Source: Oligoflexus sp.
Lineage (GTDB): Bacteria; Bdellovibrionota_B; Oligoflexia; Oligoflexales; Oligoflexaceae
Length of the DNA: 26,291 nt
Reading direction: 5' to 3'
NCBI GenBank assembly: GCA_041736305.1
Contig: JBGSTX010000051.1
Location: 1-26,291 of the forward strand
Made by a program: the position numbers and the translations under genes. Positions 139 to 21,576 of the stretch are shown piece after piece (the first letter of the stretch is position 1; each line of letters opens with the position of its first letter). The notes under the pieces were generated by a model. That model had not been told where the DNA came from and ran no database searches. It saw nothing but the letters and a program-made list of their open reading frames with translations.

Positions 139-954
139 CTACAGGTTCTGCTTTCTCAGCAGTTGAACCATTTCTTCAATCGAAACATCTTGAGGCCGGT
201 AAATTCCGGCCTTTTTTGCGAGCAGCCATTGGCTAAGCAAGAGGGCACCCTGTGCAAAGAGCTGACGATTCAAAGCACGATGAGATACCCTGATCTCTTC
301 ATTATCGCCGAGAAAGCTCACCTCATGCTCGCCAAAGACTGAGCCCCCTCTGAGTGAAGCCAGACCAATTTCACCCTGTTCACGCTTGCCCTCGCGACCA
401 TAGATGGTATCTACCTTCAGAAGCTCGGCTAAATTTTCACCTAATAGCTTGGCCGTGCCGCTGGGCGCATCGCGTTTAGATCTGTGATGCGTCTCCAGAA
501 TTTCGATATCAAAGTGAAGGGGACTTAAAACTTGAGCTAATAGCTCAGAGACTTTCATTGTGAGGAGAATACCAAGGCTGGTATTGGGCGCTAGCAGCAA
601 TCGCAAGTTGAGCTCGGCAGCGAGCTTTTTCCAACTTAATTCTTCTTCTTTAAGAAGCCCGGTGGTGCCTATGAGCACCGCCTGATCGCGGATACCCTGC
701 TTTTCCAAAACTGTTAAAAGACGGGTATTGGCTGCGTTGGCTGAAAAATCAATGATAAGGTCTGCCGTCTCAAGGAGAGGAGGCAAGGCATTCCAGTCCT
801 CTTCTTTTCCGCTTCCCTTTAAGTTAACAAGTTTATTTTGGGTCGTGCCACCGATAAGATCCCAACGTCCTGGCTCGGCCGCAATCAGCTTTCGAAGTTC
901 CAGCCCTATCCGCCCTGAGTAGCCATTAATCCAGACTTTACTGGGGGGATTCAT
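139..954 (-). CDS. dapB: 4-hydroxy-tetrahydrodipicolinate reductase
   Basis: Motifs INGYSGRIG, IDFS, IGTTG, APNTSLG, ETHHRSKRDAPSGTA, LRGGSVFGEHEV and FAQGA. The ATG at 954 overlaps the dapA stop (TGATG). Confidence 0.96.
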   Translation of the reverse strand: MNPPSKVWINGYSGRIGLELRKLIAAEPGRWDLIGGTTQNKLVNLKGSGKEEDWNALPPLLETADLIIDFSANAANTRLLTVLEKQGIRDQAVLIGTTGLLKEEELSWKKLAAELNLRLLLAPNTSLGILLTMKVSELLAQVLSPLHFDIEILETHHRSKRDAPSGTAKLLGENLAELLKVDTIYGREGKREQGEIGLASLRGGSVFGEHEVSFLGDNEEIRVSHRALNRQLFAQGALLLSQWLLAKKAGIYRPQDVSIEEMVQLLRKQNL

Positions 955-1856
955 CAAAGTACCCCAAGCTCGAGAAGTTGGCCTTTGGCTTTACTATAGG
1001 CTGCCGCGAGCTTCAGCTCAGTCGCCTTTTGAACGCTGACGAGAGGGAGGCGTAGATGATTTTCGATAAGACCTGAGTAGGCAAGCAGATACTTTGAAGG
1101 GCCAGGACTTGATTCGGCGAAGAGAAGCTCAGTTAAAGGAAAGAGCGCTTCGTGAATCAAAAGTGCAGCGCGATGATCGCCCGCCTGAAATTTTTTATGC
1201 AGGGCTACAAAGGCCTTTGGAAAGATGTTCGTCCCCACACTGATTACGCCTTGGCCGCCGACGGCGAGGCTTGGGAGAAAAGTAAAGTCATCGCCGCTGA
1301 GATAGAGAGCCTTCGCGTCAGATAAGGAAATCGCTTTAGAAAAAAGCGCCAGATCACCACTGGCTTCTTTAACTGCTTTAATCTGCGGAATAGTGCAGAG
1401 ATCAGCAAGATCTTCTGGACTCAGTCGCTGACCTGTCCGTCCGGGTACGTGGTAGAGGCAAAGTGGAATCCGAACCGCCTGGGCGATAGCCTGGTAATGA
1501 GCCCTAAGGCCTTCCAGACTCGGCTTATTGTAGGGAGGTGTTACAACGAGCAGGGAATCGACTCCAGCATCCTGAGCTAATTTTGATAGTTCGATCGACT
1601 GCCGGGTGCAATTGCCTCCCGTTCCTGCCATCACCTCGATCGTGCGTGGCAGTTGAGTTCGCGCCCGGCGATAAAGAGATATTTTTTCATCTACAGTTAA
1701 AGTGGGGACTTCGCCAGTTGTACCCGTGATGACAACCCCGTCGACGTTGGCCTCAGCTTGATTGGCGAGGAGCCGGTCGAATGCAGCCCAGTCGATATTC
1801 CCATCTTTTGTGAAGGGAGTCACAAGAGCTGTAAAAACACCGTTGAACCGACTCAT
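954..1856 (-). CDS. dapA: 4-hydroxy-tetrahydrodipicolinate synthase
   Basis: Motifs TALVTPF, GTTGE, PPYNKPS, YHVPGRTG, Schiff-base VKEASG, LSGDD and RLPL. Start moved to ATG 1856, which follows a GAGGAG SD (300 aa). Confidence 0.97.
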   Translation of the reverse strand: MSRFNGVFTALVTPFTKDGNIDWAAFDRLLANQAEANVDGVVITGTTGEVPTLTVDEKISLYRRARTQLPRTIEVMAGTGGNCTRQSIELSKLAQDAGVDSLLVVTPPYNKPSLEGLRAHYQAIAQAVRIPLCLYHVPGRTGQRLSPEDLADLCTIPQIKAVKEASGDLALFSKAISLSDAKALYLSGDDFTFLPSLAVGGQGVISVGTNIFPKAFVALHKKFQAGDHRAALLIHEALFPLTELLFAESSPGPSKYLLAYSGLIENHLRLPLVSVQKATELKLAAAYSKAKGQLLELGVL

Positions 1857-1887: not shown

Positions 1888-3336
1888 TCATTCTTGATTG
1901 ATTGGTGGGCTCGCTTCTGCTGCCTGGGCAGCATGTTTGCCCTCAGCTTTGCCCTCAGCAGATTTTTGAGACGAGTTGTTCCGTTGCTGCGCATGGTAGG
2001 GGATGGCTGGACGCAGGTCAAGAACCTCTGATTGTGGGAGAGTCTTGAACCCGCAGCCACTGAGGCCCAGAGAAAGCGTGGCCAATGGCCAGGGGAGAAG
2101 CACCAGCACTAATAAGTGGCTTTTAATCGTTTTGAGCAGGTGGTCTTTGCGCTTCAGCACTCTCTGCTTTTCCTCAGTCAAATGGGTAGCAACGCCTCTA
2201 TCCATAGCGACTTTTTTAAGATTCTGCAAGAAGCCCTCATTCAGGCTCGAGTGTAGGCGCTGTATTTCGGCACTAAGCAAGAGGTGGGGCTCGGTTTGAT
2301 GCTGCTTACAGTAGCTTTCGAGGAGCTTCAGAGCGGACTGAGCCTGCTGGTAGGGGACACCCTGTGTCAAAAGGTAGGTTACAACTTCACGACGCTCTGC
2401 TTCGGGCCAGAGCGGCATAATTAGGGGGCCGATAAGACTTGTTTTGAGGTTTTCTAGAAGGCTTTGCCCAATACTTTCGAGGATGTCCTGGATATGAAGC
2501 AGAGAAGCTAGCAGACGAAGTCGATGTTGTTCGTGGCGATCCCATGAACCGCGGCCGAGAGTGGGATAAGAGCGTATGCGTGCTAGGTGTCCTGACCAAT
2601 CTTCGAGAGCAAAATACATCTGATCAATCGCTTCGGCAGCGCCTAAATTTTGAGCTAACTGCGAGCTGATGTAACTCAGGCGATCGGCCAGAAGATCCCA
2701 GCGAAGAAAAAGCAATTTAAAAGTCTGCTGCATCCTGAGCTCGGCGAGAGCCCCGCCCTCCCCATAGCGATATCCGAGATGCATGGCGAGGCTTTGCTCC
2801 CATTGCGTACCTACTTCACTTGAGCTTGGTACTCGAGGGTGGAGCACGCGGAGGTCTATTAAAAGCTGCGCAAAGTCTTCCCTGGACTCATGAATATGCT
2901 CTGCTGCTTCCACCAGAAATGTCGAAAAAAATGTTCTCTGTTCGCACATTTCTTCCCGGAAGATAAAGAATGGCTGGTTGAACATGAGCTCAGCTTTTTT
3001 TAAAAGCCCACTAGCAAGTTCGTCCAGATAGACCAAACTTTTCTCAAGGGTATGGGCGATGGTCCACGATAAGTAGAGCTGGCTCAGGCCGTGGCTTCCC
3101 AGGCGAGTCTGCAGCTCAGAAATAAACGGGCCGTTTTCTTTGAAGAGCTCCGAGAAAAGGGATCGATTTACGTCACCCATCTGCCGGTATCGATCTTTAA
3201 TCGTCAGGCGCAAAGTATCCGCCTCTATCTCAGGCATTAAGCCTTGCTCACTGAGGGCCGCGGCACAGGCTAAAAAAAACGGTAAGCTAAATGCTGCATC
3301 GATACGGAGCAGAGACGAATGATCGTTAAACGTCAT
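1888..3336 (-). CDS. Argininosuccinate lyase (ArgH)-fold protein lacking catalytic motifs, with a C-terminal hydrophobic helix, lipobox (LSGC) and LptM/YifL-like tail
   Basis: EVVTYLLTQGVPYQQAQSALKLLESYCKQH...LSAEIQRLHSSL resembles the ArgH C-terminal consensus (DLADYLVRKGVPFREAHH.VG.LV..C...LSLEEL). LLKKAELMFNQPF...EQRTFFSTFL aligns with LL..AE.....MPGYTHLQRAQP.TF...L. Start is ATG 3336 after GGGAGGA (482 aa). Confidence 0.72.
   Translation of the reverse strand: MTFNDHSSLLRIDAAFSLPFFLACAAALSEQGLMPEIEADTLRLTIKDRYRQMGDVNRSLFSELFKENGPFISELQTRLGSHGLSQLYLSWTIAHTLEKSLVYLDELASGLLKKAELMFNQPFFIFREEMCEQRTFFSTFLVEAAEHIHESREDFAQLLIDLRVLHPRVPSSSEVGTQWEQSLAMHLGYRYGEGGALAELRMQQTFKLLFLRWDLLADRLSYISSQLAQNLGAAEAIDQMYFALEDWSGHLARIRSYPTLGRGSWDRHEQHRLRLLASLLHIQDILESIGQSLLENLKTSLIGPLIMPLWPEAERREVVTYLLTQGVPYQQAQSALKLLESYCKQHQTEPHLLLSAEIQRLHSSLNEGFLQNLKKVAMDRGVATHLTEEKQRVLKRKDHLLKTIKSHLLVLVLLPWPLATLSLGLSGCGFKTLPQSEVLDLRPAIPYHAQQRNNSSQKSAEGKAEGKHAAQAAEASPPINQE
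1936..1959. repeat. 12-bp tandem duplication (TTTGCCCTCAGC x2) encoding AEGK-AEGK
   Basis: Exact direct repeat at 1936-1947 and 1948-1959, in the low-complexity tail of the lipoprotein segment. Confidence 0.9.
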
Positions 3337-3369
3337 AGAAGAGTCCTCCCACTGCGCTGAGTTGGCTCT

Positions 3370-3375
3370 ATTATA
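3370..3375 (-). promoter_or_regulatory. Putative sigma70 -10 box (TATAAT) for the ArgH-like/dapA/dapB operon
   Basis: Perfect TATAAT about 34 nt upstream of ATG 3336 and downstream of a terminator hairpin. The -35 match is weak. Confidence 0.45.
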
Positions 3376-3434
3376 GATGATCCGAAGGAATCGGGCAGAC
3401 AAAAATCCGGCGGGGATTCTAGAGGAGAATCAAG

Positions 3435-3467: not shown

Positions 3468-5036
3468 TTAGAAATTGAAGGTCGCGTAAGACTGCAAGAG
3501 GTAACTGGTTTCCGGACCTTTATCGGGACGGGATTTCCAAGCGTCACCGGGAAGACCAATAGCGCCCGCTACTCCGAATTCGAAGTCGCGGTTGCTCAGG
3601 AAGCGTGAGTAAGTCAGATCCAGTTCATATCCCAGGGAATCTCCGTAGAAGCCAATCCTCTCATTACCTGGGACCTTCAGCTCAGCGGGCATAGTTTCAT
3701 TAAGTTTCGCAGTGATAACTTTAGCTTCGAAATTGCCATTTTCTACGCTTTTATATCGATAACCTACGTTGAATACAGTCGCATTTGTCACGCGGTAGGG
3801 ATCGAAGACTCCGTCGATGCGCAAGTTGTCGTTGCGTTGCCGTCCGTTAAAAAGGAGCAAAGCAGGCTTGAAATTCTTATGAAATGCGAATGCAGTGACT
3901 TTCGTGTCACGAGCGCTAGGTGCATCTTGGCTTGGATACTCGGGATGATAACCGTCCGCATCCCCAGGTGCAAAGGCATAGCCGAGAAAGACTGAGTGGC
4001 TGGTCGCATTTCCCTGATTGTAGTCCTTCGGTCCAACATAGGCACCAGCCCTCGAGAGGAAATACTCGAGGGATCCTGCTAAAGCGATGCCTTGCAAATC
4101 GTTTGTGACTAGATCGTTGGTGTCATTAAAGGTGCGAGCAGAACCGTGTCTTGACCAGTTGGGGTCAGCAGAACGGCCGAGACGGAAAAGTACTTCGTTC
4201 TGAAAAACTAGATCCTGCATCATAAGGTTTACGTAGAGGTCACCGAATTTAACGTCGGTTTTAGTTTCACTGCCACCGATGACATTGGCGAAATATATCC
4301 CTATTTGCTTGGAGAAATCTTTTCCTACGTTCGCGCGCTGGTCGTTGTACTCGATCGTGAGAAAGAACTGGTCGAGGTCGTCACCGTGGCTGGTAGGGCC
4401 ATAGTTGCTAGCCGGAGTCCCGGTGGAAAGGATCGAGCCGCCGGTCTCGCTGATCTTGTCATAGCCTACCGAGAAACCTAGGGTCTGGGATTTTTGAATG
4501 TTGATGTCGCAGGTTACGCCATCGAAGACAGAGGCATCCGTGTCGAAGGGCTTAGAGCCATCATCAAGAAAGATTCCCATGCCCCAGCTCCGGCCTCGCC
4601 GACCCATCGTCAGGAGGCAATGGTCCATGGAGTAGCGAGCATAGGCTTTAGTCACCCTAGGGGTATAAGACTGGTAGCGAGGTTCACCGCTGTTTTGAGC
4701 GTTGATCCTGCAGTTGGGATCATTGGCATTGGCTGCACCAGAAGGACAAGGCTGGGGCTGAGTCTTATCGCCAAGAAAACTTTCGCGTTCATCGTCGAAG
4801 AGTTTAAATTCGAGAAATACACTCGACTGATCGTTTAAGCGCAACTCAGTGTCGAGCCTGAAAAATTGGTCGATAGCCTGATGATCCCGCGAGCCAGGGA
4901 CGAATTCAGGTTTGGTACGCGTTTCACCACGGATGCTGTAGCGGCCATGACCGTCTATAAAGAGGGCGAAGGCTGGACTGCTCATCAGAGCGAAAGCGAG
5001 AGGAAAGCTCGCAATTGAGAGGTATCTTCGACTCAT
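3468..5036 (-). CDS. Outer-membrane beta-barrel protein (TIGR04551-like/alginate-export-like porin)
   Basis: From ATG 5036 (AAGGA SD) there is a signal peptide MSRRYLSIASFPLAFALMSSPAFA, amphipathic strands, a KAYA...MGRRGRSWGMGIFLDDG motif, LGYELDL and a terminal aromatic BAM signal (SYATFNF). 522 aa. Confidence 0.8.
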   Translation of the reverse strand: MSRRYLSIASFPLAFALMSSPAFALFIDGHGRYSIRGETRTKPEFVPGSRDHQAIDQFFRLDTELRLNDQSSVFLEFKLFDDERESFLGDKTQPQPCPSGAANANDPNCRINAQNSGEPRYQSYTPRVTKAYARYSMDHCLLTMGRRGRSWGMGIFLDDGSKPFDTDASVFDGVTCDINIQKSQTLGFSVGYDKISETGGSILSTGTPASNYGPTSHGDDLDQFFLTIEYNDQRANVGKDFSKQIGIYFANVIGGSETKTDVKFGDLYVNLMMQDLVFQNEVLFRLGRSADPNWSRHGSARTFNDTNDLVTNDLQGIALAGSLEYFLSRAGAYVGPKDYNQGNATSHSVFLGYAFAPGDADGYHPEYPSQDAPSARDTKVTAFAFHKNFKPALLLFNGRQRNDNLRIDGVFDPYRVTNATVFNVGYRYKSVENGNFEAKVITAKLNETMPAELKVPGNERIGFYGDSLGYELDLTYSRFLSNRDFEFGVAGAIGLPGDAWKSRPDKGPETSYLLQSYATFNF

Positions 5037-5196: not shown

Positions 5197-6039
5197 TTAT
5201 TCGCTCTCATCATCAGTGGTTTGTTGAAGGAGGCGATCGCGGAGAAGATCCAGCTCCCAACGATAGCGCTGAATCTCAATGCAGCGTCCTGTTAGAGGGT
5301 CGACAGTTGCAAGAACGAAGCAAAGCCATAGATTATTTGTAGCTGGCTCAAAGCGACGGCGTTCGCCGGTGCGCATTCTCATAAGGGCCGCCTCAGTGCG
5401 GATTCCAATCACTGAATCATATGGCCCTGTCATCCCTACATCAGTAACAAAGCCGGTGTAGCCATCGAGTATTCTTTCATCGGCTGTTGGTACGTGACTA
5501 TGAGTACCATAGCAGAGGGAGACCCGCCCTTTAAGATACTGAGCTAAGGCCTGCTTTTCGCTGGTGGCTTCACCATGAAAATCTACGATCCGAATGCGAC
5601 AGGTGTCAGGCAGCTGAGCCAGGATTGCATCTACCGGTTCGAAGAAGTCCCGGTTATCAGGGTGCATGAAAGCTCGACCGATGAGGTTGATAACCGCGAA
5701 ACTCTGCCCTGATCGACTCGTTAAAACTCGATAGGCCGCTTGTAAGCGATCAACATTCATCATGTTGGCGGGTAAAACCAAGCGCTCGGCTGTAGGGGCA
5801 AAGCCATGGATCTCAGGCTTATCGTGCCAGTGGTTACCCATAGTCACACAGTCGATTTGAAAGGTATCGATAAATTGCTGATAAATTTTCTTTGTGAGCC
5901 CAAAACCACCAGCCGCATTCTCACCGTTGCAGATGACTATATCAGCAGCAAATTCTTGCCGAGCTATGGGCAGCAGTTTAGCAAGGGCCTTGCGCCCAGG
6001 CTTTCCCATGACATCACCAACCGCGAGAATACGGATCAT
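5197..6039 (-). CDS. ymdB: YmdB-family (TIGR00282) metallophosphoesterase
   Basis: Motifs GDVMGKPGR, NGENAAGG, MGNH, DFHGEATSEK, GTHSHVPTAD and TDVGMTGPYDSVIG. ATGA-coupled to rny, which is the conserved rny-ymdB order. Confidence 0.95.
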   Translation of the reverse strand: MIRILAVGDVMGKPGRKALAKLLPIARQEFAADIVICNGENAAGGFGLTKKIYQQFIDTFQIDCVTMGNHWHDKPEIHGFAPTAERLVLPANMMNVDRLQAAYRVLTSRSGQSFAVINLIGRAFMHPDNRDFFEPVDAILAQLPDTCRIRIVDFHGEATSEKQALAQYLKGRVSLCYGTHSHVPTADERILDGYTGFVTDVGMTGPYDSVIGIRTEAALMRMRTGERRRFEPATNNLWLCFVLATVDPLTGRCIEIQRYRWELDLLRDRLLQQTTDDESE

Positions 6040-7604
6040 TTTGCAAATTCCGCGTACTTGCTCTCGCGCAGTACTGTGACCTTCACTTGCCCGGGGAAAG
6101 TAAGCTCTTTGCGTAGGCGATGCGCTATTTCGTTCGTGATATCCATAACTTCTGAGTCACTCACACCTGAAGGGGAAACCATAGCACGTATCTCTCGGCC
6201 CGCTTGTATCACGTAGGACTCGTCGATACCACGGAAGTTATTGACCAGAGTCTCCATGTCTTGAAGACGCTTGATGTATGTTTCGAGAACTTCACGACGT
6301 GCTCCTGGTCGGCGTTCGGATAATATATTAGCCGCATGAACAATCACGGTGAGGGGATAAGCGTGGTTGAGTTCGTCCGTGTGATGATTGAGAATCGCGT
6401 CGATGACTTCAGGAGCTTCGTTATATTTAACGGCAAGATCGGCTCCAATTTTGGCATGATGACCTTCCGTTTCCTGATCTACCGCTTTCCCGATATCATG
6501 TAATAGACCAACACGTTTAGCCTTTTTAACATTTAGCCCCATCTCTGCCGCCATAATCCCACAAATATGAGCTACTTCAACGGCATGCTGAAGGACGGTC
6601 TGAGCTCCAGCGGTTCTGTACTTCAATTTGCCTATATGTCTTAATAGCTCAGGGTGAAGGTCGGTGATCCCTGTATCGAAAGCAGCCTGCTCACCGTTTT
6701 CCTGAATGATCTGGTCGAATTCTTCAGCCACTTTTTTCACGGTTTCTTCAATGCGCGCCGGGTGAATACGTCCGTCGGCGATCAATCGCTGGAGAGCGAT
6801 ATTGGCAATTTCTCGCCGAATTGGGTTAAAGCAAGAAATGATAATTGCCTCAGGCGTGTCGTCGATGATGAGATCCACCCCGGTTGCTTGCTCAATTGCA
6901 CGGATGTTCCGTCCCTCGCGACCGATAATCCTCCCTTTCATCTCATCCGAAGGCAAACTCACAACAGTTACGGTCGAATCATTCACGTACTCGGAAGACA
7001 CCCTCTGAACAGCTAAGCTCACCATGGAACGCGCGATTTTTTCGCCCTCAAGTTTGGTATCTTCTTCGATCTTTTTGAGAGTTTCGCGTGCGACAGTCTT
7101 CGCTTCCACTTCTAGAGAGCGGATCAGCTCCCGACGGGCCTCTTCCTGAGAAAGATTGGCGACCGTTTCAAGGGTTTTACGATGTTCTTCGAGTGAACGC
7201 TCTGAGTCTTTGATCAGGCTCTTCAGTCGATCTTCTTCGCTGTTGAGGTGATTGGTCATCCGCTCAAGATCTTGTTCTTTCTTCTCGAGCTGGCCGAGCT
7301 TCTTTTCCATCGTCTGCTCGCGGGCTTTTACTTTACCCTCAAGTTTTTCTAGCTCAGAACGACGTTTCTTAGCTTCTTGATCGAACTGTTGGCGACGAGT
7401 TTTGGCTTCCTGCTTGGCTTCGTTGTTGGCTTCACGAAGAATTCTTTCCTTTTCGGCATGGGCTTCTTCAAGGATTTTTTCAGAATCAGCCTGGGCAGTT
7501 TCAAAGGTTTTTCGAAAATTCTTCTTATTAAGAGCGACGAAAATTAGAAAGCCTAGGGCTATTGCGACGACAGCAAAGAAGATATAAAGAAAATAGGTGG
7601 TCAC
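6036..7604 (-). CDS. rny: Ribonuclease Y
   Basis: N-terminal TM helix, long coiled coil, KH domain (DEMKGRIIGREGRNIR), HD domain (LLHDIGK), RPGARRE, QAGREIR and PGQVKVTV. GTG start after GGAGG. Confidence 0.97.
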   Translation of the reverse strand: MTTYFLYIFFAVVAIALGFLIFVALNKKNFRKTFETAQADSEKILEEAHAEKERILREANNEAKQEAKTRRQQFDQEAKKRRSELEKLEGKVKAREQTMEKKLGQLEKKEQDLERMTNHLNSEEDRLKSLIKDSERSLEEHRKTLETVANLSQEEARRELIRSLEVEAKTVARETLKKIEEDTKLEGEKIARSMVSLAVQRVSSEYVNDSTVTVVSLPSDEMKGRIIGREGRNIRAIEQATGVDLIIDDTPEAIIISCFNPIRREIANIALQRLIADGRIHPARIEETVKKVAEEFDQIIQENGEQAAFDTGITDLHPELLRHIGKLKYRTAGAQTVLQHAVEVAHICGIMAAEMGLNVKKAKRVGLLHDIGKAVDQETEGHHAKIGADLAVKYNEAPEVIDAILNHHTDELNHAYPLTVIVHAANILSERRPGARREVLETYIKRLQDMETLVNNFRGIDESYVIQAGREIRAMVSPSGVSDSEVMDITNEIAHRLRKELTFPGQVKVTVLRESKYAEFAK

Positions 7605-7810: not shown

Positions 7811-8320
7811 TCAGGGAGACGTAACTACAAACTCATCGCGACGATTCTTCGACCAAGCAGATTCATCGTGTCCTTCAGTAGAAGGCTTCTCTTCGCCGTA
7901 GCTCATAGTAGGAAGGCGGCTAGGATCGACGCCGAGCTGGACTAGATAGTTTTTAGCTGACTGGGCGCGCCGTTGGCCGAGAGCCAAATTGTATTCAACC
8001 GATCCACGTTCGTCGGTATGACCTTCTATCTGAACAACTGCTGTAGCACTGCCCTTCATGAATTCGCCCAGCTGATTCAGCTGTCCTTGAGCATCGCCAC
8101 TCAGGGAGTAATCGTCAAATGCGAAATAGACGGGTTGAGTCGAGCCGCTCGCACTCAGGCCTGCCGAAGGAGCTGACGCCTCGGGTGGAGTCGCCGGTGT
8201 TTCCGTTGTGGTAGGCTGCACAACTTCCTCTGCGGGCTTCTCGTCATCGGAGCAAGCAACGATGCCGAGGCTCATGGCTATCGCGAGGGCAGCCAAGGGT
8301 TTGCGAGTCTTGAAAATCAT
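7811..8320 (-). CDS. pal: Peptidoglycan-associated lipoprotein (Pal/OmpA C-terminal domain)
   Basis: Lipobox IVAC, a P/T/E-rich linker, VYFAFDDYSL, IEGHTDERGSVEYNLALGQRRA, SYGEEKP and NRRDEF. Start moved to ATG 8320 (AGGAG SD). Confidence 0.92.
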   Translation of the reverse strand: MIFKTRKPLAALAIAMSLGIVACSDDEKPAEEVVQPTTTETPATPPEASAPSAGLSASGSTQPVYFAFDDYSLSGDAQGQLNQLGEFMKGSATAVVQIEGHTDERGSVEYNLALGQRRAQSAKNYLVQLGVDPSRLPTMSYGEEKPSTEGHDESAWSKNRRDEFVVTSP

Positions 8321-8388
8321 CCTGTCTTCTCCTGAGAATATGTACGACATGAATCGGACACTGCGAATGTTGCCAATAGCGAAAGCAC

Positions 8389-8418
8389 ATCGTAATCATG
8401 ATCCGCTAGAAAAAGCAA
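8389..8418 (-). promoter_or_regulatory. Putative sigma70 promoter of pal
   Basis: TTGCTT-18 nt-TACGAT on the minus strand. Confidence 0.4.
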
Positions 8419-8468
8419 GATTGATTTAGACCGAGGTCATGCGGCCTAAACCCTTCCACAGAAACAAC

Positions 8469-9989
8469 TTACAGTCCTCGACTTTCGCCCCTTCGTGCAA
8501 GGCGTTCACCGATCCGGTACTGAATGCCTGAAAAACTGCCGCTGGACATGAAAACGATAGTGTCATTAGGTTTAGCTTGGGTTACCAGCGATTCGAGGAG
8601 TGCTTCGTTGTCTGCGAATGCCTGGGCCCGCTCGCCGATGAGACGGACCATATCGTCGGTATTCATTCTTTGTTCATTGGGGATGCGCTGATCGATCGCG
8701 CAAGGTCCGATCAAGACGCGATCAGCCAGTCCGAGCGAGGCTGCGAATTCTTTGACGAAAATATTGCGGCGGCTGGTAGCGTTCTTGGGTTCAAAGGCTA
8801 CAATCAAACGCTTCTTAGGATAGAGGGTTCGCAGCGATTCAATTACTGCCTTAACCGCGGTTGGATGGTGGGCAAAGTCCTCGAAGACTTCGACTCCAGC
8901 TGAGCTGGACAAACGATCAAGGCGGCGCTTTACTCCCGTGAACGAAGCAATTGGTTCGCGTAGAGATTCGAAGGTAAAAGCAGAGCTGGGGGCATCCCCC
9001 TGCTCTTTGATGCGCCAGAGGCAGGCGATGACTTGACAGATGTTAGCTGCATTATGTGGGCCAGCCAAGTCGCTTGCAAAGCTATGCTTTTTCCCGTCGG
9101 GAGTTTTCACGGTGAGCTGCCAGCTCTGGTCTTTGTCTCCTCTTGGTGCATTTAGTTCAAGTAGGCTGACCTGCGCTTTCTCCGCTAGGCCACGAGTCGC
9201 AACAGCAGTGACCTTGTTCAATAAGTTAAGCTGTCGCAAGAGCTTGACCACGCCTGGATCGTCGACATTGGCAATTATAAGTTCAGGCGATGGAACGAGA
9301 CGGAGCAAATGCGCAAACTGGGCTTCGATCGCTTCGAGGTTAGCAAAGATATCAGCGTGATCGAACTCTATATTATTAAGTATCACGTAGCGTGGGCGGT
9401 AATGCAGAAATTTGGAGTTTTTATCGAAAAAAGCGGTATCATACTCGTCCCCTTCGATGACGAAGAGGGGCCCCTTGCCGAGAGCAAAGCTGCGCGGCAA
9501 AGTCCGAGGAATGCCGCCGATGAGGTAGCCAGGGTCCCAGCCGAGTTGCGTGAGCATGTGAGCCATGATGGAGCTGGTTGTCGTTTTACCGTGTGTACCA
9601 GCGATAACGACAGTTTTACGTTGCTCGAGAAAGTAGTGACCAAGAAAAGCCGGGAAGCTTGTGTAAGGAATTCCAGCTTGTATCAATGCATCAATTTCCA
9701 CGTGTTGGCGCGATAAAGCGTTTGCGACGACTACCAATGCAGGGCGTCGTTCCGTAACATTGGCGGCAGCATAGGGAGTGAGGACAGGTATTTTTAATTC
9801 TTCTAACATTGTTGACATGGGTGGGTAAATATTGGCATCACTACCAATAAGCTGATAGCCTGCTTCTTGTGCCAGACCGGCTACAGAAGCCATCCCTGTT
9901 CCGCCTATTCCCATGAAATAGACGAGATCGCCAGGTTTAAGCTGAGGAAGTTTAGGGGTCGACGCGCTTGTCTGTTGAGATTTATCCAT
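8469..9989 (-). CDS. mpl: Murein peptide ligase (UDP-MurNAc:L-Ala-gamma-D-Glu-mDAP ligase, MurC/Mpl family)
   Basis: Motifs GIGGTGMASVA, YPPMST, AGTHGKTTTSS, EGDEYDTAFFDK.SKF, NIEFDHADIF, GVKRRL, DFAHHPTA and MSSGSF. Start moved to ATG 9989 (GGAG SD), overlapping the LD-carboxypeptidase stop. Confidence 0.92.
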   Translation of the reverse strand: MDKSQQTSASTPKLPQLKPGDLVYFMGIGGTGMASVAGLAQEAGYQLIGSDANIYPPMSTMLEELKIPVLTPYAAANVTERRPALVVVANALSRQHVEIDALIQAGIPYTSFPAFLGHYFLEQRKTVVIAGTHGKTTTSSIMAHMLTQLGWDPGYLIGGIPRTLPRSFALGKGPLFVIEGDEYDTAFFDKNSKFLHYRPRYVILNNIEFDHADIFANLEAIEAQFAHLLRLVPSPELIIANVDDPGVVKLLRQLNLLNKVTAVATRGLAEKAQVSLLELNAPRGDKDQSWQLTVKTPDGKKHSFASDLAGPHNAANICQVIACLWRIKEQGDAPSSAFTFESLREPIASFTGVKRRLDRLSSSAGVEVFEDFAHHPTAVKAVIESLRTLYPKKRLIVAFEPKNATSRRNIFVKEFAASLGLADRVLIGPCAIDQRIPNEQRMNTDDMVRLIGERAQAFADNEALLESLVTQAKPNDTIVFMSSGSFSGIQYRIGERLARRGESRGL

Positions 9990-10887
9990 GCAGAATCTCC
10001 AAGTCCCAACTGAGGCTATCTCCTTCGATCCGCAACGGGCGGCCGATAGGCAGAGGCCAGTTCGGTGAGCAATGTCCAAAGAGGGGGCAGAACCAGACTG
10101 GAAGGCCTATGCGCTCAGCGAGCTGCTCACGCAGCATGGCCTCGCTTGCGACATCGGGGACTTCGCAAGCCACAAAGCGCCCTAAGATCAGTCCTTTGAC
10201 TCCGCGCAGAGCTCCACTCTGAAGCCACTGCCTTGCGAAGCGAAGAATGCGGGCCGGGTGCTCGCCGATATCCTCCCAAAATAAGAGTGCTCCTGAGAGG
10301 CTATCTGGGAAGTAGGGTGTTCCAATAAGATTGGTAAGCACTGAGAGGCAGCCGCCAAAGCCCCAACCTCTTACCGAAGGAGCTAATCCTCGCATGAGGG
10401 GGAGCAGGGGGAGAGGGGAGGGGATATCACCTCCACGTAGTAAATTCAGAAGGGCTAAAACGTCGGCATTGCCGTTTTGACCCCATAGTTCGGTGCCAGG
10501 CATAGGTCCGTGAATTCCAGACCAACCTAGCCTAGTATAAAATGCTGCATGCAAAGCTGATATATCAGAAAATCCTACAAGGGGCTTGGGTGGAAGCGAT
10601 GCAATGTAATCCCAGGGGATTTGATCGAGCAGATCACTCGCCCCATAGCCTCCTCGGGTTGCTACGACTGCAGCAGCTTCAGGCGCTTCAAGGGCCTCGA
10701 CAAGCTGGCTCAGCCGGTCCTCGGGGGTGCCGGCCGAAAAAGGCCAGCTTGGGTCAGGGTCGAGTGGCCGGTAGCTGGTCTTGAAGTCGAGAGTCTCGAG
10801 CTCAGCTAGTCTGCGTTCTACCAAAGTCGCTGTGCTCCGGCCAGCAGGGCTAATGATACGCAGATGGGTCACTGAATGATCAAGCAT
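9982..10887 (-). CDS. ldcA: LD-carboxypeptidase (peptidase S66)
   Basis: Motifs IISPA, RGGYGA, GFSDIS (Ser nucleophile), HGPM, GGCLS, WEDIGE (Glu) and FGH (His). Confidence 0.9.
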   Translation of the reverse strand: MLDHSVTHLRIISPAGRSTATLVERRLAELETLDFKTSYRPLDPDPSWPFSAGTPEDRLSQLVEALEAPEAAAVVATRGGYGASDLLDQIPWDYIASLPPKPLVGFSDISALHAAFYTRLGWSGIHGPMPGTELWGQNGNADVLALLNLLRGGDIPSPLPLLPLMRGLAPSVRGWGFGGCLSVLTNLIGTPYFPDSLSGALLFWEDIGEHPARILRFARQWLQSGALRGVKGLILGRFVACEVPDVASEAMLREQLAERIGLPVWFCPLFGHCSPNWPLPIGRPLRIEGDSLSWDLEILHG

Positions 10888-10944
10888 GAAGAGGCGATCC
10901 GCTGGATAAGGTTATTCCTGACGAACGGGAGCAAGAGCGTATTT

Positions 10945-10972
10945 TTGAGACAGCTTCTAGGCGAACTATAAC
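10945..10972 (+). promoter_or_regulatory. Putative sigma70 promoter of the GT9 gene
   Basis: TTGAGA-16 nt-TATAAC in the divergent intergenic region. Confidence 0.5.
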
Positions 10973-10990
10973 AGATGCAGGCAGCGAGTT

Positions 10991-11028
10991 GAAGGAAGCA
11001 TCGCGGCTTCCCTCTTTTCTTATTTTTT
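10991..11028 (+). terminator. Terminator-like hairpin plus U-tract in the GT9 leader (possible attenuator)
   Basis: GGAAGC-ATCGCG-GCTTCC stem followed by CTC and TTTTCTTATTTTTT. Confidence 0.45.
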
Positions 11029-11061
11029 CCGCGAAGCCGCATCCTTGGATCAGGATTTTAC

Positions 11062-12213
11062 ATGAACTACCATGCCGATTGTCGATGGTTTTCTGGATAT
11101 AAGCCTTGTCAGTTCAAGCGGGCCTGTGAGGGCTGTCCTCACTATAGCCCTCCTGGCGAGCGCATTGCGATACTCTCTTTAGAGGCGATGGGAGCGGTAC
11201 TGCGTTCAACCTGCCTCCTTCCAGCGATTAAGAGGAAATATCCGAGCAGCCATATAACTTGGATTACTTTAAAGAACACAAAACCTCTTTTGGAGCATAA
11301 TCCCCTCATCGATCGGCTCCTCCTGGCTGACTCGACTATGCTTGCGACCATTCAGCACCTGCGCTTCGATATTCTGCTAGCGGTCGATAAATCGCTTGAA
11401 GCTGGAGCGCTGGCCCAGCAGATCAAGGCCGGGCGGAAACTTGGCTTTGGCTTAGATGAGGCGGGAGCCATCATACCGCTCAACCCTGAGGCTCAATACC
11501 AATACGACGTTGGTTTGAACGACGATTTGAAATTTTTCATCAATCAGAAAACGGAAACGCAGCAGATCACCGAAACAATGGGCTTAGAATGGAAACGGGA
11601 TCCCTATGTTCTTGAGCTCTCAAAACCCGAAAAACATGAAGTAGGCAAGCGACGAGAGGCAATGCTAGCTCTGGGGGCCAAAGGCATCATTGGCTATAAC
11701 ACAGGTTGCTCGATTCTCTTTCCCTATAAAAAGTTCACCGTAGCTCGCTCGATAGAGCTCATCCAAGCCTGGCGCGCTCGTTATCCAGATTGGGCCGTAG
11801 CTCTGCTGGGAGGCCCCGAGGACCGCGATCGGCAAGCTCAGATGAAGGCGGCGTTTGAAGGGGACGCGCTCGTTATCAATACCCCGACGGGAGAGGGTCT
11901 TCGTTCAGGCGTCCTGTGGATGGATACCAGCGATTTAGTGCTTTCAGCCTGTTCGCTCGGTCTTCACATAGCTATCGGTCTGAAAAAACCTGTCATTGCA
12001 TGGTTTGGGGTGAGTTGTATTCAAGAAATTGACGTTTATGATCGTGGTATTAAGCTGCAATCTGACGTCACCTGCTCGCCCTGCTGGAAGAAAAGCTGTG
12101 AGCAGCCCAAGAAGTGCTACGACTCAGTGGAAGTCGAGCGCATCCTCACGGCCACGGACGATTTGATGCGAACCCACGTCAAGACTGAAAGTCGAAATAC
12201 ATCTGGAGCTTAG
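11062..12213 (+). CDS. Glycosyltransferase family 9 (ADP-heptose:LPS heptosyltransferase-like) with N- and C-terminal Cys clusters
   Basis: Motifs LLPAIKRKYPSSHITWIT, LLEHNPLIDR, IGYNTG, LLGGPED, LHIAIGLKKPVIAWFG and CSPCW...C...C. Confidence 0.88.
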   Translation: MNYHADCRWFSGYKPCQFKRACEGCPHYSPPGERIAILSLEAMGAVLRSTCLLPAIKRKYPSSHITWITLKNTKPLLEHNPLIDRLLLADSTMLATIQHLRFDILLAVDKSLEAGALAQQIKAGRKLGFGLDEAGAIIPLNPEAQYQYDVGLNDDLKFFINQKTETQQITETMGLEWKRDPYVLELSKPEKHEVGKRREAMLALGAKGIIGYNTGCSILFPYKKFTVARSIELIQAWRARYPDWAVALLGGPEDRDRQAQMKAAFEGDALVINTPTGEGLRSGVLWMDTSDLVLSACSLGLHIAIGLKKPVIAWFGVSCIQEIDVYDRGIKLQSDVTCSPCWKKSCEQPKKCYDSVEVERILTATDDLMRTHVKTESRNTSGA

Positions 12214-16318: not shown

Positions 16319-16426
16319 GTAATTAGCATTACGGTGGCGTCAAGGAATTGGCTGACTAGATGCCTTCGCGAAGGCGGTTTAGACTTGAAAATGGCGATAT
16401 TTAAAGACCGCTTAAGTGAGGATTCT

Positions 16427-17089
16427 ATGGCTGAGCAGTGGCTTTCCATAGTTGAGTATGCGAGGACCTTTGCCGTCTCAGACATGACGGTTCGAAGGCG
16501 AATAAAGAATGGCAAACTGCAAGCCGTTCTGCGAGAGGGGAAGTATTATATTCCCCTTAGTGCGGGAGAACGCATCATCGAAGAAGAGCCTCTCTTCGAT
16601 GTTCCTGATCGATTGCGGCAGAAAGCAGCTGCAAAATCTCCACCGAGGTCGGCGGTTTTGCCGGAAATACCTGTGCAACTGCAGTCGGCGTTGGCAGCTC
16701 CTCCATCAGCACCTGCACTAGCTCCGACTGCAGTATACGCTTCGCATTCGGTTCTTGCTTCTCCTTCGCCTTCTGCGCTGACTGACGAGAATTTTCTCGA
16801 AGACTTCCAGCGGCTGCGGCTTGGGGCAAGCACGAAATCGCTACCGAAGCAAATTACTCAGCATTTGCAGCGAAGTGACAATACTCTGGTGGATAGCCAG
16901 GCTCTGCTGCAGTTCTGCGAACAAAGCATGACGCGCATCAGCTCGATCGAACGCCATTTGCAAGATAGCTTCCAGCAGCGACTGCAGAACCTGGAAACGC
17001 AGATCAAGCTTAAGGACGGGGTTATCGTTCAGCTTAAGCAGCAAGTCGAAGATCTGCAGATGTTGGTCAAGCTTATGGAACAAAAATAG
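16427..17089 (+). CDS. Putative DNA-binding protein: N-terminal MerR/excisionase-like HTH, P/A/S-rich linker and C-terminal coiled coil
   Basis: N-terminal WLSIVEYARTFAVSDMTVRRRIKNGKL...EGKYYI and C-terminal heptads LQNLETQIKLKDGVIVQLKQQVEDLQMLVKLME. ATG 16427 follows GAGG. Confidence 0.75.
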   Translation: MAEQWLSIVEYARTFAVSDMTVRRRIKNGKLQAVLREGKYYIPLSAGERIIEEEPLFDVPDRLRQKAAAKSPPRSAVLPEIPVQLQSALAAPPSAPALAPTAVYASHSVLASPSPSALTDENFLEDFQRLRLGASTKSLPKQITQHLQRSDNTLVDSQALLQFCEQSMTRISSIERHLQDSFQQRLQNLETQIKLKDGVIVQLKQQVEDLQMLVKLMEQK

Positions 17090-19398: not shown

Positions 19399-21576
19399 TT
19401 AACTCGTCTGGGCTTTGCCCGCAGTGAAGAGGCGGCGTCCTTGATGGAAGCCGTTCCAAATAGGGGCATTTGCTGCGCCGAGTTCGCATATTTCCACGGC
19501 TAGGTCATTTACGAGGTCACTACTGCTAGGACAGGCACTCAGCTTTTGCAAGTCCGTCTGCTGGCTTAACCAATCAATGAAGTCAGCTTCGTCTCCTGAG
19601 GCTACCGCAAGTATGGAGAGGATCCACGGTCTTTGAGCTAAGGAACTATCAATTTGTGTGTTTTTCGACCAAGAGCAGAACCTTATCAAAGGAAATTCAG
19701 CTCCTAGACGAAGTACGTCTTGGCCGCGGCGCAGGAGATCTAAATGCGTATGAACCAGACTGATAGCTTCGTTCGGAGGTATGGGTTCAGACCAGTTTTT
19801 TCCGGCCTGATGAAAGGCGGCTTCGCTTGCTATCCAGTCTTCGAGATGGTCCTCTGGAGCGCCCCAAACGAAAAGCAGCCTACTGCTCATGCAGCCTTTT
19901 TGACCTAAGCTGAAGGTATCTTTCCAAATGTAATCGGCGAGATGCCCTTTAGTTAAAGCGCTCTTGTGGGCAATACTGGCTGTGATAAAACTTCCGAAGC
20001 CTTGGAGCGGCCAAGGGCTGCTATCTTTGAACTCGCGAAGGGTTTCATCGCTAGCAAACGCAAGGAGCGCTCCGACCTGAGGAGCTGGTAAATCCCCAAC
20101 CCGATAGCTCTCGGGTAAGAGATCTATTTTGACAAGGTCACTATGCTCGAGTTCTCTTTTCCAAAAGTGGAGAAGATCGCTGCCGCTAGAAACCCGTACA
20201 GTAAGGTCGAGACCTAGTAAGGATCCTAAGGCAAGCGGATAAAGAGCCGCTATTGGGTGCGTGCGGGGAGGAATAATAAGCCAAGATTTTGGAGTTTCGG
20301 TGTCAATCGCCGCAAGAGCTGCTCTTACCCAGCATTCGACAGATTTTGGAGTACTGCGGCGCAGGTCTTCTTCGAGAGCGGCCGCAAGTCGAGGCGAGCC
20401 CAAAAGGTCTAAAAGTAGAGCCTTATGTTCGACCATATCCCATATAGTCTCTAGGGTTGAGACCAAAATTTTCGCTCGTGCGGCCAGAGTTGCTGGGTCC
20501 GGAGACAAGAGCCTGTCTATCTTAGCAGTCGCCGACGGCAATGTTTTGCGTTTATGACAATCTTCAGCCAGAAGCGAGCAACCTTTAAGAGCGGAAAGAG
20601 GCACGCGCCCTAGGAGTTCGAAGCTTCCTTGCGGATTCAGATTTACGAGGTCTTCAGTCCTGATAGGCCAAGGAAGGTCACAACGAATTCTATCATCGAC
20701 AAGCAGCGAGCCAAATCCTTCGGACTTTAATAAGCCTCGACTATCAGCAACTTGAAGTCGAATCCACTTTGGAAAACGGTATCTGCGTTTACTCAAAGGC
20801 AGTTCCGCGCCGTCAGGGTTTGGCACAAAGTCATAGGCTTGGCTTGCCAGTTCGCACATTCCATACTCACTGACAATGCGATTACGCGGTACAGCGAAAC
20901 TTGCTTCGATAAGCTCGTAAAGTTCTTCGCGACTGACTGAGCGACTGCGACCTTTAGTACCTCCAGTTTCGACTACGATGCTTCCGGCGGGAAGACGGCA
21001 GGTCTGGCCGCGATCCGCAAACTGAACCAGGTGGAAGGCCGTTGCAAAAAGCCAAATAGGCTCTTGAGGCAAGAGAGGCTCAGCACCATCGTCGATATAG
21101 GTGAGGCGACCTTCTGCGCCGATCCAAGCCAACATCTGGGCTAGGCTGGAATCTGGCCATACCGAGGTGTTTGGCACCATACTGAGGCCTAAGGCATCTT
21201 GAGGGTGCGGGAAAAAGTTTTGCAGCATCGCCCAAAACCCACGGAGTGAAAACTGGCGATAGAGATCGAGACCTTGTTTACTGAATGGCGAAAGCGAACG
21301 CTCACTCTGAGTCGTACCGCTAGAACGAAAAGAGCGTTCAACTCCTCCAGCAGCAGCGATGTATTCGGACCAAAACGCGGCATCGTCTTTGAGACTCTCT
21401 ATCGGCAAAAGGTCACTTTGCCTATACACAGCCTGAATGGCCTCTCTATAAAGCGGCTGCGGACGCATGCGCGTTTCTAAAAGGGAGCAAGAAGGAGAAG
21501 AAGGAGACGGAGAAGTATAGACCTCACTGAGGGGTGTTCTAAGCCATTCTTGCAAGGTTTGATTGGGACCGCTCAT
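19399..21576 (-). CDS. Fused LuxE-type acyl-protein synthetase / LuxC-type acyl-CoA reductase
   Basis: N-half: FRSSGTT, SSLAQM, ETGGTKGR..SREEL, SEYGMCELASQAY, TEDL and FELLGR...KGCSL. C-half: VRVSS, AFASDETL, GFG, DTFSLGQKGCMSSRLLFV and P.W..FHQGR. AGGAG SD; 725 aa with no internal stop. Confidence 0.82.
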   Translation of the reverse strand: MSGPNQTLQEWLRTPLSEVYTSPSPSSPSCSLLETRMRPQPLYREAIQAVYRQSDLLPIESLKDDAAFWSEYIAAAGGVERSFRSSGTTQSERSLSPFSKQGLDLYRQFSLRGFWAMLQNFFPHPQDALGLSMVPNTSVWPDSSLAQMLAWIGAEGRLTYIDDGAEPLLPQEPIWLFATAFHLVQFADRGQTCRLPAGSIVVETGGTKGRSRSVSREELYELIEASFAVPRNRIVSEYGMCELASQAYDFVPNPDGAELPLSKRRYRFPKWIRLQVADSRGLLKSEGFGSLLVDDRIRCDLPWPIRTEDLVNLNPQGSFELLGRVPLSALKGCSLLAEDCHKRKTLPSATAKIDRLLSPDPATLAARAKILVSTLETIWDMVEHKALLLDLLGSPRLAAALEEDLRRSTPKSVECWVRAALAAIDTETPKSWLIIPPRTHPIAALYPLALGSLLGLDLTVRVSSGSDLLHFWKRELEHSDLVKIDLLPESYRVGDLPAPQVGALLAFASDETLREFKDSSPWPLQGFGSFITASIAHKSALTKGHLADYIWKDTFSLGQKGCMSSRLLFVWGAPEDHLEDWIASEAAFHQAGKNWSEPIPPNEAISLVHTHLDLLRRGQDVLRLGAEFPLIRFCSWSKNTQIDSSLAQRPWILSILAVASGDEADFIDWLSQQTDLQKLSACPSSSDLVNDLAVEICELGAANAPIWNGFHQGRRLFTAGKAQTS

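Follow-up and report, generated by a model that had tools for sequence, protein, structure and literature searches.

The window analysed here is a stretch of 26,291 nucleotides from an Oligoflexus sp. genome (GenBank assembly GCA_041736305.1, contig JBGSTX010000051.1), and the gene in question lies at 1888..3336 on its minus strand. It encodes a protein of 482 aa in which a body with the predicted fold of argininosuccinate lyase (ASL), apparently stripped of its catalytic residues, is continued by a small C-terminal lipoprotein module. The coding sequence, which matches protein P0002 at 100%, ends with the stop codon at 1888-1890 and belongs to a stop-to-stop frame of 1888..3402 on the minus strand. 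A Shine-Dalgarno (SD) sequence, GGGAGG, is read at 3345..3350 (-), 8 nt from the ATG at 3336-3334. An earlier reading of this DNA, made from the letters alone and called here the sequence-only reading, had described an intact open reading frame (ORF) of this length with a strong SD, and both are confirmed. Moreover, the peptides that it quoted all lie where it had placed them: QPFFIFREE is aa 121-129 (nt 2950-2976), RSYPTLGRGSWD is aa 255-266 (2539-2574), YLLTQGVPYQQAQ is aa 321-333 (2338-2376), and LLVLVLLPWPLATLSLGLSG-CGFKTLP is aa 408-434.

The fusion gene is followed, 31 nt to its 3' side, by dapA (954..1856, -; Pfam DHDPS, 2.7e-76), whose end is overlapped by dapB (139..957, -; Pfam DapB_N/DapB_C). 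Its 5' neighbour (3468..5036, -) encodes a 522-aa outer-membrane beta-barrel protein that is AlgE-like and has a C-terminal F. On the 5' side of the barrel gene, the minus strand carries YmdB and, further up, RNase Y (window 5197-7604). The start listed for the barrel as a 603-aa ORF overlaps ymdB, and the ATG at 5036 is the likely start. The order RNase Y, YmdB, barrel, lipoprotein module, dapA and dapB recurs across the order to which Oligoflexus belongs.

Fold and active site of the body

The body occupies aa 1-405 (2122..3336, -) and corresponds to all three ASL domains by profile, hhalign and structural model, but searches with the single sequence are blind to this relationship. Pfam returns ASL_C2 alone, with an E value of 0.15 and 13 bits against a cut-off of 27.3 bits (aa 318-373), and NCBIfam returns nothing relevant and no ArgH match (TIGR00838, cut-off 279.5 bits). 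A phmmer search of PDB yields no match, and the best BLASTP E value against the genome's own ArgH is 7.2. Similarly, hhalign of a five-sequence alignment against a single ArgH gives a probability of 0.14%. A genome-wide search with Lyase_1 (cut-off 27 bits) passes over this locus and matches three other genes, fumC, purB and the canonical argH.

Profiles and fold comparison were needed to reveal the ancestry. A profile built from an alignment of 131 family members, which is also the source of the column counts below, matched delta-2 crystallin in PDB with an E value of 5e-10 in an hmmsearch, colinear over profile positions 93-410 and chain positions 126-466. The E value was 1.3e-7 for human ASL and between 1e-4 and 4e-4 for the ASL of plants, mycobacteria and Thermus. 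In total, ASL and delta-crystallin make up 15 of the 23 PDB profile matches, including all twelve at E<=1.7e-7. When the same alignment was compared by hhalign with 20 ArgH sequences of the order, the result was 98.45% with an E value of 3.9e-15 over 340 columns (23-372 against 40-427), and in related genomes the profile picks up the genuine argH genes with E values of about 1e-9. The domain seen below threshold by Pfam, an ASL_C2-like third domain at aa 318-373 (2218..2385, -), is also recovered in the profile alignment to ASL. A search of a protein atlas ranked ASL clusters first at 0.80, which serves as a lead only.

The structural comparison agrees with the profiles. An AlphaFold2 model based on the 131-member alignment has a mean predicted local distance difference test (pLDDT) of 89.5 and a predicted template modelling (TM) score of 0.84, and is helical to residue 425 with a disordered tail. 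Among the Foldseek matches to PDB, all 45 of the 45 top ranks listed are ASL or delta-crystallin, the best with an E value of 8.4e-10, TM scores of 0.59/0.62 and 14% identity. VIA-align superimposes residues 5-410 of the model on residues 26-465 of delta-1 crystallin (1hy0_B) with a Z of 22.1 and a root-mean-square deviation of 4.3 Å over 391 residues. Other members of the superfamily, including EDDS lyase (21.5), CMLE and Tad1, score Z 19-21.5. Because the values are 22.1 and 21.5, ASL and EDDS lyase are not separable by fold scores. The modelled three-domain, mostly helical fold with its central bundle of long helices places the body in the fumarase/aspartase/ASL superfamily; the fold alone gives this level, and the sequence profiles give the ASL branch. 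On the strength of the profiles, the body descends from ASL and not from another branch of the superfamily, as the sequence-only reading had recognised. A hydrophobic stretch at aa 16-28 was considered as a signal peptide and rejected; it aligns to an ArgH helix and is modelled as helical at pLDDT >95.

To trace the residues of the ASL active site, the ArgH of this genome was used as the reference for the profile-profile alignment. Its H159, the catalytic His of ASL, falls on E128 (2953..2955, -) in both the residue map and the hmmsearch alignment, and T158 of the same PGYTHxQ motif falls on R127. Across the 131 members this column reads G37, D21, N18, E12, A11 and S10, with His not among the six commonest residues. 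The GSSxMPxKxNPD catalytic loop maps to an unconserved remnant at aa 256-266 (2539..2571, -): S280 remains S in 29 of 131, S281 is replaced by L, K286 by S, T or G, and N288 by S, D or N. The substrate-binding segments HTGRSRND (107-114) and YNKD (320-323) fall in alignment gaps and appear to be deleted. Only two ASL-invariant residues survive, E269 and R272 (2521..2532, -), which correspond to E293 and R296 in the ELIRGK motif of ArgH; of the 131 members, 116 have E and 14 have D in the first column, and 123 have R in the second. The HMMER alignment agrees on E128 but sets E269 and R272 against the NKDLQ segment of ASL, and the predicted loss of catalysis holds under either alignment. The sequence-only reading had held that the catalytic His is replaced at QPFFIFREE and that the SSIMPQKKNP signature is absent. 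Both claims survived this alignment, which did not recover the catalytic motifs. Overall, aa 1-405 are best described as a predicted cytoplasmic pseudoenzyme that has kept the whole ASL fold and lost the active site.

This body shares with ArgH (TIGR00838; Lyase_1 and ASL_C2) the three-domain fold over residues 5-410, colinear profiles, and the Glu and Arg of ELIRGK. In contrast, the fusion family lies below all of the cut-offs, its His, Ser loop, SRND and YNKD are gone, and a C-terminal membrane/lipoprotein module has been added. The delta-1 crystallin of birds, a non-enzymatic lens protein recruited from ASL and the best structural match of the family, offers an analogy for an ASL fold that selection has preserved in the absence of ASL activity. 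As a recent duplicate, it can still be readily recognised as ASL by sequence, whereas the present family is bacterial and membrane-linked, has lost active-site loops by deletion, and is 12-15% identical to ASL and delta-crystallin chains. An ArgH-derived pseudoenzyme in bacteria would be a prokaryotic counterpart of the delta-crystallin story.

The sequence-only reading had also raised the question of a second argH or argG, and the genome does possess a canonical argH (611.7 bits on TIGR00838), directly 3' of argG at another locus. Among the 61 related genomes searched, whose completeness of 53% to 97% bounds these counts, ArgH exceeds the cut-off in 24. By a hand tally, the ASL-like part is carried by 49 of the 61, of which 23 have ArgH and 26 lack a canonical ArgH, while one has ArgH only and 11 have neither. 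Two genomes of high completeness (G034 and G035, 97% and 96%) contain the family and give zero ArgH match. The ASL-like body is retained regardless of whether the genome makes arginine. As a separate observation, the low number of genomes with ArgH above the cut-off suggests that arginine auxotrophy may be common in the order.

The lipoprotein module and its family

The second module, aa ~393-482, reads as a complete precursor of a small lipoprotein with a mature part of about 55 residues. It opens at aa 393-427 (2056..2160, -) with a stretch rich in K and R and an uncharged segment of 22 residues, which is probably a former lipoprotein signal peptide and would now form an internal membrane segment in the N-in/C-out orientation. 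The lipobox L-S-G-C is read at 2053-2064 (-). The putative mature N-terminus follows at aa 428-448 (1993..2055, -), comprising Cys428 and then GFKTLPQSEVLDLRPAIPYH, and is the best conserved segment of the protein. The remainder, aa 449-482 (1891..1992, -), is a variable, low-complexity tail with pLDDT values of 40-67, indicative of disorder. The mean majority share falls from 0.61 after the Cys to 0.31-0.36 for the ASL-like parts and 0.13 for the tail.

These features are consistent across the 131 members. All of them have the Cys, with G, S or A at position -1 in 128. The median length of the uncharged stretch is 17 residues, and the 15 residues before it contain a median of four K+R against one D+E, with a net positive charge in 119. 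From the Cys to the end, the median length is 48 residues, compared with 55 aa here. The mature part begins with the motif CG[VL]KT.P.S..D.RP.IP, in which C428 (131 of 131), G429 (129), K431 (128), R442 (119) and P443 (127) are the most constant positions, along with P434, S436 and P446. The lipobox pattern [LVI][ASTVI][GAS]C thus stands after a positive n-region and a hydrophobic h-region, as in a typical lipoprotein precursor. Its placement is atypical: the signal peptide begins at about residue 393 of 482 in the fusion and is N-terminal only in stand-alone or split relatives, or if an internal start is used. The stand-alone homologues start with Met at the position of the signal peptide and carry lipoprotein signal peptides of the ordinary kind, as in M-KCSLQITLLLMLAS-C-GVKTAPRS. 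They occupy the same genomic slot as the fusion, in agreement with the C-terminal lipoprotein that the sequence-only reading had proposed.

The fusion belongs to a sizeable family. A word-indexed search found four relatives with 44-56% identity and lengths of 458-471 aa, and an exhaustive profile search of clusters at 50% identity found 196 at E<=1e-3, 160 at <=1e-10 and 93 at <=1e-30. The matched clusters are mostly 440-500 aa long and aligned from the start to past profile position 440. At the level of whole genomes, 54 of 61 relatives match, and in a search of the phylum 84 of the 95 genomes of the order match (G000 included). Outside the order there are weak matches only, all on real ArgH genes, so the family is nearly confined to one order, that of Oligoflexus and its relatives. 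Two named records among the related loci are contigs of Oligoflexaceae/Oligoflexus metagenome-assembled genomes.

No Pfam model accounts for this family. None of 100 members reaches any Pfam family cut-off, and among the matches below threshold ASL_C2 is the commonest (11 of 100, and 8 of 26 in a smaller set), followed by LptM_cons (3 of 100, and 4 of 26). Lyase_1 matches none of the 100 at E<=0.1, and the best ASL_C2 E value is 0.0021. The 196 clusters represent an unannotated family for which no Pfam or NCBIfam model reaches threshold. A search of the literature on ASL pseudoenzymes with lipoproteins and on ASL in Oligoflexus found no description of the fusion.

Several observations indicate that the fusion gene is maintained by selection. 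In the phylum search, 72 rows have both modules in a single frame, eight of them with one or two stops counted inside the match; the gene frame of one genome (G045), when read directly, contains both modules and no stop. Selection was estimated from 13 genus-level sequences, which form 78 pairs, by using the four pairs with unsaturated synonymous divergence (dS 0.7-1.5). The ratio of nonsynonymous to synonymous divergence (dN/dS) is 0.14-0.17 for the ASL-like body and 0.11-0.28 for the membrane/lipoprotein part, which points to purifying selection. Because 196 clusters match the profile at E<=1e-3 and 93 at <=1e-30, and because of this dN/dS, the ORF is not a chance frame. The relatives show conservation and not decay, and the core of the sequence-only reading stands: the protein is a catalytically dead ASL-fold protein, kept by selection and fused to a lipoprotein module.

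Gene order and the origin of the fusion

A comparison of 41 related loci shows dapA on the 3' side of the family or lipoprotein module in 38 and the barrel gene on its 5' side in 37. At six loci (L037-L041 and L081) there is no ASL-like gene, and a small ORF that matches the C-terminal module only is found in the same slot. At three others (L035, L036 and L042) the modules are separate genes, and in L035 the stop of one overlaps the start of the next as ATGA.

A further arrangement is found at two loci of the sister order, L076 (3853-5265) and L077 (3522-4982). Each carries an ArgH-like gene that scores close to the TIGR00838 cut-off, with 275.8 and 285.8 bits, respectively. In these genes PGYNHLQ is kept, LGTESLPWRKAPD and LGGDNIPVSTTPD replace the SS loop, and SFTDQ and SFKDQ replace SRNDQ. 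The next gene in both, which overlaps the ArgH-like one, encodes a small lipoprotein (...G-CGVK); the overlap in L077 reads ATGA, and L076 has a homologue of the barrel gene upstream. The pair resembles the fusion locus in the order barrel, argH-like gene and lipoprotein (L076), in the CGVK start and in the ATGA stop/start overlap. It differs in having two genes, an ArgH that is near the cut-off and retains the His, and no dapA/dapB downstream. In one genome of 94% completeness (G073), a copy of this type is the best argH-like gene present. The ArgH-like genes of L076 and L077 may themselves be pseudoenzymes at an earlier stage.

The gene order argH, small LptM-type lipoprotein gene and lys/dap genes, which the sequence-only reading had called recurrent, was checked in two settings, namely the adjacency of lptM and dapF in E. 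coli and the argH-like genes with a small lipoprotein gene in the sister order. A search with the module profile beside canonical argH gave no match at E<=10 in 36 loci of the order. Because no lipoprotein lies beside these 36 canonical argH loci, the canonical argG-argH operon was not the source locus.

Based on these arrangements, the simplest course of events that can be proposed is as follows. An argH resident at the locus would have lost its function, with ATGA shared between its stop and the start of the lipoprotein gene. The argH-like gene and the lipoprotein gene would then have been fused by a frameshift at this junction, and some lineages may later have lost the ASL-like part or split it off again. 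If so, the split, ATGA-coupled, fused and lipoprotein-only states, with the half-degenerate ArgH of the sister order, would form an unusually complete series for the decay of an enzyme gene, its acquisition of a new role and its merger with a neighbour.

Processing of the fusion protein and its possible role

The explanation favoured here, which is probable as a whole, is that two neighbouring genes fused and that the resulting chain of pseudoenzyme body and lipoprotein precursor is processed. The parts of this explanation differ in strength. The anatomy of the protein, its ancestry, the loss of catalysis and the action of selection can be accepted with high confidence. The processing route and the LptM-like role, taken jointly, could equally well hold or fail. 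In the proposed route, the hydrophobic segment would insert into the inner membrane with the N-terminus inside and the C-terminus outside. Lgt would place a diacylglyceryl group on Cys428, and LspA would cleave before it. The released lipoprotein of about 55 residues, with Gly at position +2, would be exported to the outer membrane and act in an LptM-like manner on a beta-barrel partner. The ASL-fold body would stay at the inner membrane with the former signal peptide as a C-terminal anchor, and would have a non-catalytic role of its own. The bases for this route are that the body has no N-terminal signal, that the segment is positive-inside, that the lipobox is standard, that Gly occupies +2 and that the peptide after the Cys is conserved.

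In its most specific form, the protein would be a piggy-back precursor that is split by LspA: one part, with the ASL fold, would serve as a scaffold or ligand sensor anchored in the inner membrane, and the other would be an LptM-like lipoprotein of the outer membrane. This form can be put forward only tentatively. If true, it would tie an envelope-assembly factor one-to-one to a cytoplasmic module derived from amino-acid metabolism, in a conserved envelope operon of barrel, lipoprotein and dapA-dapB. A further consequence would be that Lgt and LspA can handle signal peptides remote from the N-terminus. The signal peptide and lipobox lie 390 residues into the chain and are kept there in about three quarters of the genomes of the order, an arrangement that bears on the limits of lipoprotein maturation.

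The comparison with LptM (YifL; PF13627) rests on several shared features. E. coli LptM, MKNVFKALTVLLTLFSLTG-CGLKGPLYF..., is a small outer-membrane lipoprotein that assists the maturation of LptD; it has a mature part of 48 residues and is encoded 36 nt upstream of dapF. In both LptM and the present module, a lipobox is followed by C-G-(L/V)-K and by a proline-rich, disordered mature part of about 48 residues, and the gene stands directly upstream of a diaminopimelate (DAP) pathway gene. A small lipoprotein (<70 aa mature) next to lysine/DAP genes is what is found here, with dapA-dapB downstream in 38 of 41 loci. According to a preprint on E. coli LptM, its first nine mature residues, the essential C20GLKGPLYF28, suffice for function, and G21W breaks binding (bioRxiv 10.1101/2025.01.03.631273). 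Of this nine-residue N-terminus, C, G, (V/L) and K are common to both and near-invariant in the family, and the remainder differs. In a spike test, E. coli LptM outscored all 95,456 other frames of the genome on the module profile (15.4 vs 13.7 bits), making it the best match outside the family. In contrast, the family reads T.P.S..D.RP.IP after CG.K where LptM reads GPLYF, it is fused behind a protein of 400 residues, and its lineage lies outside the Proteobacteria. Yang et al. (2023, PMC10567701) describe lptM-like genes of PF13627 as virtually absent outside that group. An LptM-like mode of working can be proposed with moderate confidence, and the module is not filed as a member of LptM. 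Should the C-terminal peptide prove equivalent to LptM, factors of the LptM type would extend beyond the Proteobacteria to the relatives of Oligoflexus, and C-G-x-K would be the interaction core.

A number of results weigh against this explanation. In a quick LG+G4 tree of 54 rows, the family forms one clade on a long stem and the sister-order genes join ArgH, with an SH-like approximate likelihood-ratio support (SH-aLRT) of 97. The stepwise series with sister-order intermediates is suggestive rather than proven, and long branches weaken the tree. About ten genomes of the order retain the lipoprotein alone, so the ASL-like body is dispensable for the lipoprotein. With regard to LptM, the margin of the spike test is small (E 0.056). 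The LptM_cons model PF13627 gives the module 12.5 bits against a cut-off of 27.3, with an E value of 1.3 and rank 6 among 11 sites in the genome; at its cut-off it matches none of the 100 members, and below it three. The 131-member profile matches the YifL chains in PDB with an E value of 0.07. Another lipoprotein-like frame, MRASITPLVILIFVAS-CGFKNRLND on the minus strand of contig C117, has the same CGFK start, and this frame may be due to chance, since about one is expected among 1043 crude lipobox-like sites. With regard to processing, a search of the literature on internal signal peptides and lipoboxes found no case behind a folded domain of 400 residues, which makes acceptance by Lgt and LspA uncertain. 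Finally, the lipoprotein might be initiated separately, and this is the main alternative and a live one.

According to that alternative, which has a rather low probability, the lipoprotein arises from an internal in-frame start, and the full-length product is either incidental or an uncleaved pseudoenzyme anchored in the membrane. In the window the candidate start is a GTG (V393; 2158..2160, -) with GAGGA 10 nt upstream, a spacing on the long side, and such starts are not conserved across the family. Of 33 genes, 18 carry a start-capable codon with an SD-like motif at a distance of 13-40 codons ahead of the Cys, compared with a share of 0.20 in control windows from these genes, but ten of the 18 come from one genus and the rows are kin, which overstates the counts; by hand count, loci outside genus 1 have it in 8 of 18. 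The ancestral split forms held the start and ribosome site of the lipoprotein inside the end of the upstream gene, and such signals could survive fusion. However, start-capable codons by themselves, at positions -13 to -39, are not enriched (28 of 33, against 0.80 in controls), and the SD-like word overlaps the codons of a conserved E-K pair (K390, 125 of 131). Moreover, 5 of the 33 genes have no ATG, GTG or TTG in the 28 codons open to an internal start and keep the CG.K...RP motif, so that in these five, at any rate, the precursor has to be the full-length chain. It is also conceivable, if improbable, that the product is an uncleaved bitopic protein of the inner membrane in which Cys428 is unlipidated and the periplasmic peptide serves as a tethered ligand or sensor arm of an ASL-fold scaffold. 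This would suit the internal signal peptide, which is atypical of Lgt and LspA substrates, the selection on the body, and the one-frame fusion in 72 rows, which suggests that the linkage itself is useful. Nevertheless, the lipobox is that of true lipoproteins, whereas a plain anchor needs no invariant Cys; Gly at +2 (129 of 131) is as in outer-membrane lipoproteins, and the stand-alone homologues are ordinary lipoprotein precursors.

Two other alternatives concern the body itself. Near-invariant positions within it, namely N120 (128 of 131), E269, R272, Y342, E357 and K390, might be taken to mark an active enzyme with new chemistry and a rebuilt active site, and the fumarase/ASL superfamily has yielded several chemistries, such as those of EDDS lyase, CMLE and Tad1. 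Such an enzyme is very unlikely: the superfamily has three active-site segments in common, of which the body has lost two by deletion and shows no conservation in the third, none of the superfamily profiles scores above threshold, and evolution of the body runs two to four times faster than that of ArgH (terminal branches of about 1.1 against 0.2-0.6). The great distance from ArgH in single-sequence searches and the presence of a canonical argH elsewhere in the genome might instead point to an argH pseudogene in decay whose reading continues into the following gene, or to an assembly or frameshift artefact. This possibility is negligible and already refuted by the data on conservation and selection: the frame is open over its full length in dozens of genomes from many families with a low dN/dS, the AlphaFold2 model is confident, and the SD is strong.

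Under the favoured explanation of a processed fusion, the lipopeptide would act on a beta-barrel partner, and the barrel neighbour and LptD were examined in this connection. The neighbour gives a model of the 18-strand type with a pLDDT of 80.1, and its best Foldseek match is the alginate exporter AlgE (E 1.4e-15, TM 0.52/0.58). It has a signal peptide and no Pfam family, and TIGR04551 matches it below the cut-off. The Pfam model of the LptD barrel, PF04453, finds no match in the genome, and this model matches only 2 of 14 control genomes. Matches to LptD_N fall on a 1065-aa frame, which is a candidate for LptD, and on a 273-aa frame that is LptA/LptC-like (sites C94:3379-3606, L083, and C114:14080-14394, L082).

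Elsewhere in the window, a 725-aa ORF (19399-21576, -) and a 251-aa ORF (16334-17089, +) are without a Pfam or NCBIfam family at the thresholds used, and the latter has one weak match of the excisionase type (E 0.0048). Additionally, the stretches 7811-10887 (-) and 11062-12213 (+) encode an OmpA/Pal-like lipoprotein, a protein of the Mur-ligase family, an LD-carboxypeptidase and a family-9 glycosyltransferase resembling heptosyltransferases. This cluster, at 7811-12213, is compatible with an envelope theme for the region.

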